This document shows, piece by piece, positions 16,905 to 57,693 of a DNA stretch of 64,000 bases (the stretch's first letter is position 1; each line of letters opens with the position of its first letter). Source of the DNA: an uncultured Chloroflexota bacterium (GTDB lineage: Bacteria > Chloroflexota > UBA6077 > SHYK01); NCBI GenBank assembly GCA_964417895.1, contig CAYQJS010000004.1:51724-115723 (forward strand), written 5' to 3'. The notes below the pieces were generated by a model. That model saw only the letters and a program-made list of their open reading frames with translations, searched no databases and was not told the DNA's origin. The position numbers and the translations under genes are program-made.

Positions 16905-17058
16905 CCCCCTCTACCTCTGGGAGAGGGCAGGGGTGAGGGCGCCACCCTCTTCCTCTTGGGAGAGCGGGGTTTGGGCGCGCCGCCCGGGGAACGCCCTCAC
17001 CCGACTCGTCCCGATCGCTCGGGGCTCGCCGGCCTCTCCCAGAGGGAGGCGTGGAGGT
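16905..17058. repeat. REP-like hairpin elements, family 2 (ccctctcccagagggag...ggtgagggcg), about 3 copies
   Basis: ccctctacctctgggagagggcaggggtgagggcg; ccctcttcctcttgggagagcgggg; cctctcccagagggagg. Confidence 0.8.
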
Positions 17059-53238: not shown

Positions 53239-54669
<1,431 letters not shown>

Positions 54670-54811
54670 GATCGGTCTCAGGTCCCGTGTCCAAAGTCCC
54701 AGGTGCGGGCTAGACTTCGTACGTTGGACCCGGGGGCCTGGGGCTGCGGCTATTCTACAATCTCACCCACCGGGGACGGGCTCACCAGGACGGGACACCG
54801 AGGGCGTAGCA

Positions 54812-55420
<609 letters not shown>

Positions 55421-55423
55421 CTG

Positions 55424-55547
55424 CCAGCTATCAGCCGTCAGCCTTCAGTGGCCCGGCGCCCTCGTCGCCTGGCCGTTCCTGGCTGACGTGATGGCTGACC
55501 GCTGGAGGCTTCGTCTGATGGCTGAGGGCTGGTAGCTGATGGCTCGC
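55424..55547. repeat. inverted heptamer-type arrays (TCAGCCG / GGCTGA family) that include the pfkA start codon
   Basis: ccagcta tcagccg tcagcct tcagtgg (55424-55451) versus ggctgac..ggctgacc..tgatggctgagggctggtagctgATGgctcgc (55481-55547). Confidence 0.8.
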
Positions 55548-56612
55548 ATCGGTGTCCTCACCGGTGGCGGGGATGCGCCGGGTCTGAATGCCGTGGTCCG
55601 CGCGATCGTCAAGGCCAGCCATACCCTCCACGGCTGGGACGTCCTCGGCATCGAGGAGGGGTTCGTCGGCCTCATCGACACCGGGCGCACGCGCCTACTC
55701 ACTCCTGAGGATGTACGCGGCATCCTGCCGCGGGGCGGCACCATCCTCGGCGCGAGCAATCGCGGCAACCCCTTCCTCTACCAGGCGGCGCCCGAATTGC
55801 CTCCGGTCGATATGTCTGAGCGGGTCGTCGAGAACGTCAAACGGCTGGGCATCGACGCACTCATCGTAATCGGAGGCGACGGGACGCTGTCCATCGCTCA
55901 GGAGCTCACGAGCATGGGAGTTCGCCTGGTTGGCATCCCCAAGACCATCGACAACGACCTCTCAGGGACCGACGTGACGTTCGGCTTCGATACCGCCGTT
56001 GTGACGGCCACGGAGGCCATCGACAAGCTCCACACCACCGCGGAGAGCCACCACCGTGTCATGGTGCTCGAGGTGATGGGCCGGAACGCCGGCTGGATCG
56101 CCATCGAGTCCGGCATCGCAGGGGGAGCCGACATCATCTGTATCCCGGAAATCCCCTTCCGCACCGAGCGAGCGCTGGATGCCATCAGGCTGCGAGACGC
56201 GGCGGGGAGCAAGTTCAGCATCGTGGTTGTCGCCGAGGGAGCGGTGTCCTCGGGCGGCGAGCAGATGCGAGTCGAAGGGACCTCCGGCTTTGGTGCCCGC
56301 TACGCGGGTATAGGAAACTGGCTGGGGGACCGCCTGGCTGAGGGAACGAACCACGAGGTAAGAGTGACCGTGCTGGGGCACGTGCAGCGCGGTGGCAGCC
56401 CCAGCGCCTTCGACCGCATCCTGGCCACTCGCTTCGGGACGGCGGCCGTCGACTTGATCTCCGGCGGCGGGTTTGGCCGAATGGTGGCCTACCACGGGCC
56501 CGACGTCGTGAGCATCCCCCTCTCCGACGCCATCCGGGCTCCGAAGATGGTCCCGGCCGATGGCGAGCACGTGCGGACAGCCCGGGCCCTGGGGATCTGC
56601 CTCTGCGATTAG
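55539..56612 (+). CDS. pfkA: ATP-dependent 6-phosphofructokinase
   Basis: MARIGVLTGGGDAPGLNAV, VIGGDGTLS, GIPKTIDNDL, MGRNAGW. Confidence 0.9.
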   Translation: MARIGVLTGGGDAPGLNAVVRAIVKASHTLHGWDVLGIEEGFVGLIDTGRTRLLTPEDVRGILPRGGTILGASNRGNPFLYQAAPELPPVDMSERVVENVKRLGIDALIVIGGDGTLSIAQELTSMGVRLVGIPKTIDNDLSGTDVTFGFDTAVVTATEAIDKLHTTAESHHRVMVLEVMGRNAGWIAIESGIAGGADIICIPEIPFRTERALDAIRLRDAAGSKFSIVVVAEGAVSSGGEQMRVEGTSGFGARYAGIGNWLGDRLAEGTNHEVRVTVLGHVQRGGSPSAFDRILATRFGTAAVDLISGGGFGRMVAYHGPDVVSIPLSDAIRAPKMVPADGEHVRTARALGICLCD

Positions 56613-56727
56613 CGGTGGAAAACCGCCCCTATCGTTCAATCGTTGTATAGTGGCGCCCTACGCTCTGCGCGGGCTCGTACTACTTCTTTAGTGGCGATTC
56701 CGAAGCGCAGTTGTTGGGGAGGCAGCC

Positions 56728-57693
56728 ATGCTGACGCGGCCGATTGCGATCGTAGCGGTGGTATTGATCCTTGCCGTGGGGACCCGGGCGATAGCGCAGG
56801 ATGGGACGGAGTCAACCGTCGAAGGCCAGCTCCAGGTGGTCGTGCTGGAGCCAACGGAGGTCTACTCCACGACGGATGAGCTCCTTTGGATGGCAGAGCC
56901 TGGCGAGGCGTACACCGTCGTCAGCGTGGAAGGCGATATGGCCCTGGTCGTCGGGGACGCCGAGACCGGCGAGCTGGTATGGGTCGGGCTCGATTCGAGG
57001 GTCGAGCTGGTGCCCCAGATGGCGGAAGAGGGTGTTCCGGAAATGACCGCAACGCCCCCGCCCACGCCGACGTCTTTGCCGGCAACGGCCACGCTGACGC
57101 CGACACCTACGGCAGTTGCAACAGCCACGCCGGCGCCCGGAGCGCCGGGCGGACCTACGCAGACGCCAGGGGGACCTACGCAGACGCCAGGGGCGCCTGC
57201 GACGTCAGTCCCAGGCGCGAGGAACCCTGCATCCTGGTCGCTAACCGTCGCCGACCTGCCCGGCTTCACTCAGACGCCGTTGGAGCAGCAGCCCCCAGCG
57301 TATGGTGCGGTCTTCGTGAATTCCGCGATTAGCGCATCCGTGCCCATTGTCGTCTTCAACTTGCTGTTTCCCTCGGCTCCGCCGGCACCACCCATGTCGC
57401 AAGCTTTCCTCGAGCCGTTGACCGACGCGCTCGGCCAGGCATTAGTCGAGTCATTTGGCAGTGGGACCGCTATGCGGGTCAGCGGTCCGCCAGTCGGCGA
57501 CGTAAGGAACTGGCTGCGTGCGACGACGACGCAGACCAGTGGTGCCGTTACTCTGCGTACAGAGGTGAACATGGTCGGCTTTGCGGTGCGCAGCGACTTC
57601 GCTCTCGTCGGCACGGTCCACTTGGAGGGCAGCGGCAGCCAGGGAGAAGCCGCGCGCCTCGCCAATATTGTGGCGGAGCGGATGCGTCGCTAG
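56728..57693 (+). CDS. secreted hypothetical protein with Pro/Thr-rich linker
   Basis: Signal peptide MLTRPIAIVAVVLILAVGTRAIAQ; TPPPTPTSLPATATLTPTPT...GGPTQTPGGPTQTP (21-bp tandem duplication). Confidence 0.65.
   Translation: MLTRPIAIVAVVLILAVGTRAIAQDGTESTVEGQLQVVVLEPTEVYSTTDELLWMAEPGEAYTVVSVEGDMALVVGDAETGELVWVGLDSRVELVPQMAEEGVPEMTATPPPTPTSLPATATLTPTPTAVATATPAPGAPGGPTQTPGGPTQTPGAPATSVPGARNPASWSLTVADLPGFTQTPLEQQPPAYGAVFVNSAISASVPIVVFNLLFPSAPPAPPMSQAFLEPLTDALGQALVESFGSGTAMRVSGPPVGDVRNWLRATTTQTSGAVTLRTEVNMVGFAVRSDFALVGTVHLEGSGSQGEAARLANIVAERMRR

Follow-up and report, generated by a model that had tools for sequence, protein, structure and literature searches.

An inverted heptamer-array hairpin at the stop-start junction upstream of pfkA in an uncultured Chloroflexota bacterium

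The junction between a molybdenum (Mo)-oxidoreductase gene and pfkA, the gene for 6-phosphofructokinase, was analyzed in a 64,000-nt stretch of DNA (the window) from an uncultured Chloroflexota bacterium (GenBank assembly GCA_964417895.1, contig CAYQJS010000004.1, positions 51,724 to 115,723). Unless stated otherwise, the features given below are located on the plus strand and numbered from the first letter of the window. The upstream gene (54812..55420) encodes an Oxidored_molyb domain protein of the sulfite-oxidase/MsrP-like type (Pfam PF00174, 2.4e-38) and ends with the stop codon TAG at 55418..55420. The downstream gene pfkA (55539..56612) belongs to the PFK_mixed subfamily (PF00365, 3.3e-105; TIGR02483, 9.1e-133) and is the sole copy detected in the genome at E<=1e-60. 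An in-frame TAG at 55533-55535, together with PFK profile matches starting at residues 2-3 of the protein (position 1 of TIGR02483 corresponds to residue 3), leaves ATG 55539 as the only possible start of pfkA. Both genes are connected by an imperfect hairpin of 125 nt (55416-55540). Its 5′ foot is the TAG stop codon, while its 3′ foot holds the likely Shine-Dalgarno (SD) sequence of pfkA and abuts the ATG. This hairpin is probably a gene-less member of a lineage-specific group of inverted heptamer-array hairpins, which occupy stop-start junctions; its type of arm is also found in gene-bearing cassettes of related genomes. The effect on pfkA would then be a by-product of the history of the element and not a designed switch.

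The RNA fold predicted for 55415-55565 has a free energy of -87.4 kcal/mol, compared to -62.7 +/- 4.1 kcal/mol for 200 dinucleotide shuffles, none of which was as good (0/200, z -6.0). A repeat search placed the best-complementary arms at 55425-55448 and 55515-55538 (24 nt, 88% complementary, 66 nt apart) and also found several shifted registers, as expected of periodic arms. The minimum free energy (MFE) structure uses a shifted register in which A55539 and U55540 pair with 55416-55417 beside the stop codon. The left (5′) arm (55416..55448) consists of the units (TAGCTGC) CAGCTAT CAGCCGT CAGCCTT CAG, and the stop codon of the oxidoreductase gene makes up the first three bases of its terminal motif TAGCTG..CAGCTATCAGC. 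The right (3′) arm (55515..55540) reads CTGATGG CTGAGGG CTGGTAG CTGAT; it contains the SD sequence and terminates at the pfkA ATG. Units on this side are of the GGCTGAN type and end with ...ctgagggctggtagctgATGgct. The likely SD sequence GAGGG (55524..55528) lies 10 nt upstream of the ATG inside the stem, with one of its G residues in a G.G mismatch.

A preceding sequence-only reading had described an inverted heptamer array with the pfkA start codon inside one arm. Its left arm, ccagcta tcagccg tcagcct tcagtgg, does start at 55424, the fourth nucleotide after the TAG, and the SD sequence gaggg was correctly assigned to the right side. That the ATG lies within the right arm holds for the MFE register, in which two of its bases are paired; in the register of best complementarity, 55538 is the last position of the arm and the ATG is located at the 3′ foot. 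The arms are inverted and the left one is regular (lag-7 self-match 0.67; other lags 0.04-0.45 except lag 14 at 0.65), whereas the right arm shows a weaker periodicity (0.48) and is much less regular. With up to one mismatch, TCAGCCNTCAGCC occurs four times in the window compared to 0.69 expected occurrences, and three of the four are found at this junction. Tandem Repeats Finder (TRF) at score 30 did not report the pfkA locus because its units are degenerate.

The interior of the hairpin (55449..55514) harbors no cargo gene; it is partly taken up by an inner stem (55436-55458 / 55466-55488) and also holds the first TGATGGCT copy out of a total of three. Two further in-frame ATGGCT copies (55491 and 55518) are present in 55491..55535 and are closed by the TAG at 55533-55535, 3 nt before the pfkA ATG. 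Translation of 55491-55535 gives MADRWRLRLMAEGW followed by the stop. A function of this stretch as an upstream open reading frame (ORF) or leader peptide was rejected; it lacks an SD sequence, is composed of repeat units and is most likely repeat debris. The same region contains a direct repeat (55489-55510 / 55516-55537, 82%). The TCAGCCN and GGCTGAN units do not include the four-fold runs of three G residues that define G-quadruplexes, and an Rfam scan of 54000-57000 at E<=1 gave no match.

The sequence-only reading had further proposed that pairing of the two arms sequesters the ribosome-binding region of pfkA, and structure prediction bears this out. In a transcript including the left arm, the ribosome-binding site (RBS) region 55519-55553 is predicted to be about 88% paired, with a mean probability of being unpaired of 0.12 (SD sequence 0.24, AUG 0.35). 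Neither a sigma-70-like promoter nor an intrinsic terminator was predicted in the spacer by a promoter/terminator scan, which covered 55300-55700 for terminators. Since the spacer lacks such a promoter, and since the same two genes are only 3 nt apart in a relative of the same family (G002), it is likely that the oxidoreductase gene and pfkA are co-transcribed. On a bicistronic mRNA the stem would bring stop and start codon together and hide the SD sequence. A ribosome terminating at the UAG may melt the foot of the stem, so that pfkA would be translated by translational coupling. This route was modelled by blocking 55400-55430/36 to mimic the terminating ribosome, which raised the probability of the AUG being unpaired from 0.35 to 0.87-0.90. 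Coupling would agree with the geometry of the junction. The left-arm stretch covered by such a ribosome would be the pairing partner of the 15-20 nt that the 30S subunit needs upstream of the AUG, and the base of the stem would set the stop beside the start, resembling the ancestral 3-nt junction. Alternatively, pfkA may be translated after cleavage of the stem by RNase III, whose gene (rnc) is present in the genome. Translation of pfkA is probably either coupled to upstream termination or dependent on a cut by RNase III.

Translational coupling through an RBS-sequestering stem that is opened by upstream ribosomes is well known from rpmI-rplT of E. coli and from the coat and replicase genes of phage MS2. 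Similar to these systems, the RBS of pfkA is predicted to pair with the region where the upstream cistron terminates; in the model of a terminating ribosome the AUG is freed, while the SD sequence stays mostly paired. By contrast, the stems of rpmI-rplT and MS2 are conserved and experimentally tested, while the pfkA stem would be a recent repeat insertion and its coupling is deduced from folding. An alternative view is that of a dedicated pfkA riboregulator, in which the left arm sequesters SD and AUG until a signal such as temperature, a metabolite, a protein or a small RNA opens the stem and thereby tunes glycolysis. The strong stem covering the SD sequence and the single copy of pfkA would suit such a device. 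Among all 24 permutations of the four left-arm units, the native one is also the most stable, and the sense-strand fold, which comprises seven G.U pairs, is 16.8 kcal/mol better than the antisense fold, a difference that large being found at 10 of the 140 inverted loci of the genome described below. Unit order and strand difference weakly suggest that base pairing in the mRNA is of importance at this locus. On the other hand, there is neither an Rfam family nor a conserved loop resembling a ligand pocket.

Comparison with relatives gave additional information on the origin of the hairpin. G002 possesses the same gene pair, its PfkA being 73% identical, but the junction reads GAC TGA ccg ATG GCA and is devoid of a hairpin, so that 3 nt separate the genes instead of 118 nt. 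The upstream protein falls short of its G002 counterpart by one residue, and its gene ends with TAG instead of TGA, while PfkA starts with MARIGV instead of MAPIHRIGV. Thus, both gene ends were remodelled. The element would occupy what was probably a 3-nt stop-start junction of the bicistron, and stop codon (TAG) and start codon (ATG) would now both be supplied by it. No relationship to this junction was seen in the regions upstream of 28 related pfkA loci, and the hairpin is absent from every relative examined. A search for closer pfkA orthologues in 185,579 species genomes and in metagenome contigs yielded none above 58% identity, and a separate look-up of the exact protein gave no match. 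The comparison of orthologous upstream regions, which the sequence-only reading had recommended, speaks against a dedicated riboregulator of pfkA: the hairpin is not conserved in G002, and the upstream regions of other family and order members are unrelated. The heptamer arrays as such are lineage-specific as well. In 160 kb of the genome under study 31 period-7 arrays were found, compared to none in 159 kb of G005 and one in 76 kb of G002, and GTCCCAR arrays gave 162 matches here and none in seven genomes of the same family.

Heptamer arrays were also seen at two other pfkA loci. A soil metagenome contig (Ga0207677_10000015) of an unrelated bacterium, with a PfkA that is 56% identical, contains a near-perfect inverted TAGCAGR/CTGCTAY hairpin 12 nt before the pfkA start (L129:1389-1481); the 151-nt fold of L129:1370-1520 has a free energy of -90.8 kcal/mol. 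In another genome (G021, locus L105), the array CTCAGCA x4.4 is positioned at the 5′ end of pfkA, just upstream of the gene or inside it. These occurrences probably reflect that pfkA loci alone were looked at.

To place the hairpin in a genomic context, period-7 arrays were analyzed in the whole assembly (5.66 Mb, 65% GC). By TRF, the window itself contains many such arrays with differing units. In the assembly, 465 period-7 arrays of at least 2.8 copies were detected, compared to 136 arrays of period 6 and 52 of period 8. They represent 181 canonical heptamer units and, after merging, 454 arrays. A reverse-complement partner within 300 nt was identified for 148 of the 454 merged arrays at a match of at least 13/14 (none in the random-flank control) and for 223 arrays at a match of at least 12/14 (14 in the control). 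The resulting 140 inverted loci have a median length of 100 nt, and the TCAGCCN unit of the pfkA element is a minor type with about eight loci. Since gene calls were crude (ORFs based on GC content at third codon positions, first start codon), counts depending on starts are bounds, and starts were only trusted if fixed by an in-frame stop, with profile coverage in addition for six genes. In 43 of 137 inverted loci, an edge of the hairpin is situated at -30..+5 nt relative to a facing stop codon, while about nine would be expected for random placement in non-coding DNA. If only those loci are considered which adjoin a stop codon and are followed by a co-directional gene whose start is bounded, 13 besides pfkA fill the spacer to within -15..+27 nt of this start. 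Most of them leave 11-27 nt for an SD sequence outside of the stem. A layout like that of pfkA was found at atpG (6 nt between edge and start), argH (ATG abutting the arm), hemE (5 nt) and thrB (2 nt), and the ATG of lysS is even located 7 nt inside the arm; the starts of these five genes were confirmed by NCBIfam profiles beginning at residues 1-7. In the atp operon (C76:723-802), a GTCCCAA/TTGGGAC hairpin (-61 kcal/mol) has the TAG stop codon of atpA in its first unit and stops 6 nt short of the ATG of atpG. Because the order of stop, hairpin and start recurs at these genes, the arrangement upstream of pfkA is to be ascribed to the class and not to glycolysis.

The same survey bears on the two explanations that ascribe a local function to the hairpin. 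An architecture which recurs at many unrelated genes hardly agrees with a riboregulator dedicated to pfkA, and in the class as a whole the sense fold was not favored over the antisense fold (21 vs 24 loci, p 0.91), the native unit order was more stable in only 19 of 60 loci, and in-register covariation was not observed. Control of pfkA by a purpose-built device, as implied by the sequence-only reading, is not supported in view of the missing conservation, the lack of an Rfam match, about 140 similar loci in the genome and the same layout at unrelated genes; we regard it as highly improbable. What stands is the observation itself, whereas the regulatory interpretation is only partly supported. 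The importance of the locus lies mainly in its contribution to the cassette hypothesis outlined below. A second functional explanation is that the hairpin acts as a terminator, an attenuator or a 3′-end stabilizer of the oxidoreductase mRNA, with pfkA transcribed from its own promoter. Like terminators and stabilizers of the repetitive extragenic palindromic (REP) type, the hairpin begins at a stop codon, and the class is enriched directly after stops. However, the stem is not followed by a U-tract on either strand, the terminator scan was empty here, and the spacer holds no promoter-like site, the right arm reaching the ATG and leaving no room for a promoter. Moreover, such hairpins are found inside the atp operon. 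This explanation is very unlikely.

Further arrays and repeats were noticed in the genome. At C8:104642-104666, TCAGCCA x3.6 is inserted in frame in a long ORF, presumably that of a methionine synthase, where it encodes ..GQPSAISHQG.. and may be tolerated as a 21-nt linker. A TCAGC/GCTGA-type hairpin, TAGCGTCAGCCATCAGC ... GGCTGAGGGCTGAAGGCTGATTGCTGA, lies directly upstream of the SD sequence and ATG of an acetolactate-synthase-like gene and 3′ of a terminator-like stem (C104:1940-2010). The loops of some heptamer hairpins contain a nested element of a second, palindromic repeat family, CCCTCTCCC...GGGAGAGGG, which translates to ..PPPQPSPVEGEGVRVSPPPLRGRVREGG..; it was found at C11:11769-12115, C41:4557-5124 and C50:27073-27413 and at 16907-16978 of the window. 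Upstream of the oxidoreductase gene, a degenerate GTCCCAR array (54675-54710) is situated in the divergent spacer to a minus-strand ORF (53239..54669; putative fumC according to the sequence-only reading). The listed start of the oxidoreductase ORF (54617, 267 amino acids) crosses this array and was rejected as over-extended. Alignment with the G002 orthologue (67% identity), in which conservation begins at VAFD, and inspection of the sequence identified GTG 54812 as the true start; it is preceded at a distance of 7 nt by GAGGG (54800-54804), the same motif as the SD sequence of pfkA.

A link to gene-bearing elements is suggested by the single PF05635 (TIGR02436) gene of the genome, which encodes a four-helix-bundle protein (C72:3005-3319, minus strand). 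In C72:2879-3532 this gene is bracketed by the inverted arrays TCAGTCC x7.7 and GGACTGA x10.6, whose unit is among the commonest of the genome. PF05635 genes are present in 21 of 41 related genomes. Twelve loci were retrieved from relatives; in each of them period-7 arrays occur at a distance of 13-106 nt from the gene, and in ten they flank it on both sides, with units varying by locus. In each of ten cassette loci analyzed, the outer edges of the arms carry or abut a flanking stop or start codon, and seven of these loci are clear co-directional stop-to-start junctions. Three cassettes (G003, G026, G018) have TCAGC/GCTGA arms that align with the arms at pfkA. For the 5′ arm of G003, TAGCTATCAGCTATCAGCAGTCAGCAGTCAG versus TAGCTGCCAGCTATCAGCCGTCAGCCTTCAG, 26 of 31 positions are identical. 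The 5′ arm of G026 matches the pfkA left arm at 26 of 33 positions, with the terminal ATTAGC included, and that of G018 at 24 of 28 positions in an alignment extending past the inner boundary of the array. On the opposite side, the 3′ arm of the G018 cassette and the pfkA right arm share 20 of 25 positions, and TGATGGCTGACCGC (55489-55502) represents a 14-nt identity with the end of the G003 3′ arm. None of 500 shuffles scored as well as the arm similarity to the cassettes, a control that is weak for low-complexity sequence.

The cassettes also provide an explanation for the position of the codons at pfkA. The 3′ arm of G003 ends with ...GGCTG ATG GCT GAC CGC, in which the ATG starts the next, unrelated gene (MADR...), and arms of the TCAGC/GCTGA type generally end with ...GCTG ATG GCT.... 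For this reason the pfkA start codon is found inside an arm. At the other end, the terminus TAGC is common to the cassettes of G018 and G026 and, after a second array, of G003. In G018 its TAG is the stop codon of ubiD, while ubiA starts at the end of the other arm; in G003 the stop codon TAA is contained in a preceding CTATAAG array. Terminal repeats of such arms frequently provide both the TAG upstream and the ATG GCT downstream in related genomes. The ubiD-ubiA junction was found in different states. It reads TAG-ATG in G039 and is occupied by a PF05635 cassette in G018 and by a GxxExxY cassette (TIGR04256, 3.5e-41) in G008; G014 has 221 nt of other sequence at this position. The arm of the GxxExxY cassette in G008, ...AAAGCTGACGGCTGATAGCTA, is the same GCTGA arm as that of G018. 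In both cargo types (loci L233-L240), the arm also codes for the C-terminal K-A-(D/E)-G-stop of the protein. GxxExxY genes were searched for in the genome under study and none was found. The frequency of arrays was additionally determined in 15 related genomes, sampled at arbitrary contig starts. Densities of 19, 7, 14, 25, 0, 23 and 8 period-7 arrays per 100 kb were obtained for seven genomes with an intact PF05635 gene and of 0-4 per 100 kb for eight genomes without it (one-sided Mann-Whitney p 0.007, a value that is overstated because the genomes are kin).

A more far-reaching scenario is that the heptamer-armed hairpins represent the non-autonomous copies of a selfish cassette which seeks junctions and has so far not been described. 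In its autonomous state, this cassette would carry a PF05635 (Avd/IVS-like) or a GxxExxY gene. It would insert exactly at a stop-start junction, bring both codons along and be rendered harmless either by the stem, which places stop and start side by side for hand-over of the ribosome, or by RNase III trimming. With no cargo between its arms, the pfkA hairpin can only be a gene-less derivative of such a cassette. As a general account of the hairpins this scenario is possible but should be viewed with reserve. For the locus itself, the hairpin is real; it most probably represents a cargo-free copy of a repeat cassette that seeks junctions, and not a switch built for the control of glycolysis.

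A simpler explanation is a plain microsatellite that grew in place by slippage from the stop-start junction, without mobile ancestry and without function. Heptamers are the commonest long simple sequence repeats in many bacteria and have been ascribed to polymerase slippage (PMC4692102, PMC4679880). At pfkA, the triplication of TGATGGCT, the junction-like CTGACCGCTGG, the degenerate units and the lack of a second copy of the element in the genome would all agree with local growth. However, slippage alone does not yield an inverted partner arm, and cargo-bearing cassettes of three other genomes have the same terminal motif (ATTAGC..CAGCTATCAGC) and the same inner boundary of the arm. In addition, array density tracks the presence of PF05635, and the precise placement between stop and start recurs. 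A plain microsatellite is thus unlikely.

Several observations weigh against the interpretation of the hairpin as a gene-less member of a cassette-related class. The arms are of low complexity, and their likeness to the cassettes could be convergent use of a common unit. In the 66-nt loop at pfkA no remnant of a cargo gene was detected, as there is no ORF and the similarity to cassette interiors does not exceed that of shuffles. One cargo copy stands against 181 different heptamer units in the genome, and BLAST of the 131-nt element against the whole genome recovered only the element itself, the next match having an E value of 0.1. To our knowledge, PF05635 proteins are not transposases or nucleases, and a mechanism of mobility is not known. 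The empty site is represented by a single relative, whose PfkA is just 73% identical. CTGACCGCTGG in the right half of the hairpin matches CTGACCGATGG of the G002 junction at 10 of 11 positions and hints at a relic of the ancestral junction, a comparison made post hoc in which 50 of 2000 shuffles were as good. The triplicated TGATGGCT is a sign of local growth, and in the ribosome-blocked fold the SD sequence is still mostly paired (probability of being unpaired 0.20-0.40).

A precedent for a tolerated stem-loop with a PF05635 gene is provided by the intervening sequences (IVSs) of 23S rRNA. IVSs with a PF05635 ORF are removed by RNase III without ligation (PMC11270868). Like them, the pfkA element would be a stem-loop insert tolerated in a functional RNA; its cargo-bearing kin encode PF05635 and RNase III excision would neutralize it. 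They differ in that the pfkA copy is located in an mRNA spacer and has no ORF, and heptamer arms are not known from the IVSs described. It is conceivable that the stem at pfkA is likewise an RNase III substrate, cleavage of which splits the cistrons, frees the pfkA leader and makes the insertion harmless. The near-continuous stem of at least 24 bp is suitable for RNase III, the rnc gene is present, the cargo-bearing kin carry the protein known from rRNA IVSs cleaved without ligation (PMC11270868), and excision would account for the tolerance of a hairpin within the atp operon. The missing sense-strand folding bias of the class contrasts with this assumption, which we judge to be rather unlikely as an explanation of its own. 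It is, in any case, compatible with and not opposed to the cassette-type origin of the hairpin.

Heptanucleotide repeats are known from other bacteria. In cyanobacteria such as Calothrix PCC 7601, short tandemly repeated repetitive (STRR) sequences comprise several different intergenic tandem heptanucleotides per genome, and their function has been unknown since about 1990. The hairpins described here resemble them in the multiplicity of units and the intergenic location, in a different taxon; STRRs are not known to have been described as fillers of stop-to-start junctions with cargo-bearing copies. The co-occurrence of many gene-less extragenic hairpins with few protein-coding copies flanked by the same repeats is reminiscent of REP/REPIN elements and their RAYT transposases. 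In these systems one conserved family belongs to each RAYT, whereas the units studied here vary by locus and BLAST did not reveal a second copy of the pfkA element. Membership in the REP/REPIN group is ruled out by the lack of dispersed copies of one palindrome. Heptameric repeats have been described in Xanthomonas (GGGAATC) and Nostoc (GGGGAYT). They occur mainly in intergenic regions, where they separate co-directional ORFs and are located near the upstream stop codon (average distance 28 nt; within 50 bp), and Xanthomonas has 70-75 convergent pairs per genome that are able to form stem-loops and are mostly transcribed (Rehm et al. 2015, PMC4692102). The pfkA locus is similar with respect to its tandem 7-nt units, its convergent stem-loop arms and its intergenic position at most 4 nt from the upstream stop. 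By contrast, these repeats are based on a single G-rich unit in each genome and were investigated with regard to G-quadruplex formation, while 181 units coexist here and TCAGCCN lacks G-runs; neither a link to cargo genes nor a donation of stop and start codons is reported in that work (PMC4692102). The TAACTGA arrays of marine Beggiatoaceae occur directly upstream of start codons, including those of essential genes, and overlap the expected RBS, which led to the proposal of a translational role (MacGregor 2015, PMC4679880). Unlike the arrays at pfkA, they are direct repeats of a single unit with one indirect repeat only, so that the logic of a hairpin is missing.

As a regulator of pfkA, the hairpin would be an ordinary finding, and the repeat class as such has already been published for Xanthomonas and cyanobacteria. 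What the locus adds to it is an empty and a filled state of the same operon junction, terminal repeats that donate codons, the identity of the arms with those of cassettes and the covariation of array density with PF05635 over 15 genomes. In a limited search of the literature, no paper was found that links heptamer arms to PF05635 or GxxExxY cassettes or to the donation of stop and start codons. The arrangement raises the question of how ribosomes initiate on essential genes whose start codon is located at the base of a stem with a free energy of -50 to -90 kcal/mol. If the hairpins are indeed non-autonomous copies of a selfish cassette, the sole pfkA gene of this bacterium as well as atpG, argH, hemE and thrB would depend on such a bypass, and the 35-year-old puzzle of the STRR and heptamer repeats would obtain a testable origin. 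Should this hold up, it would tie together the heptamer/STRR repeats, the "23S IVS protein" family and the GxxExxY proteins.

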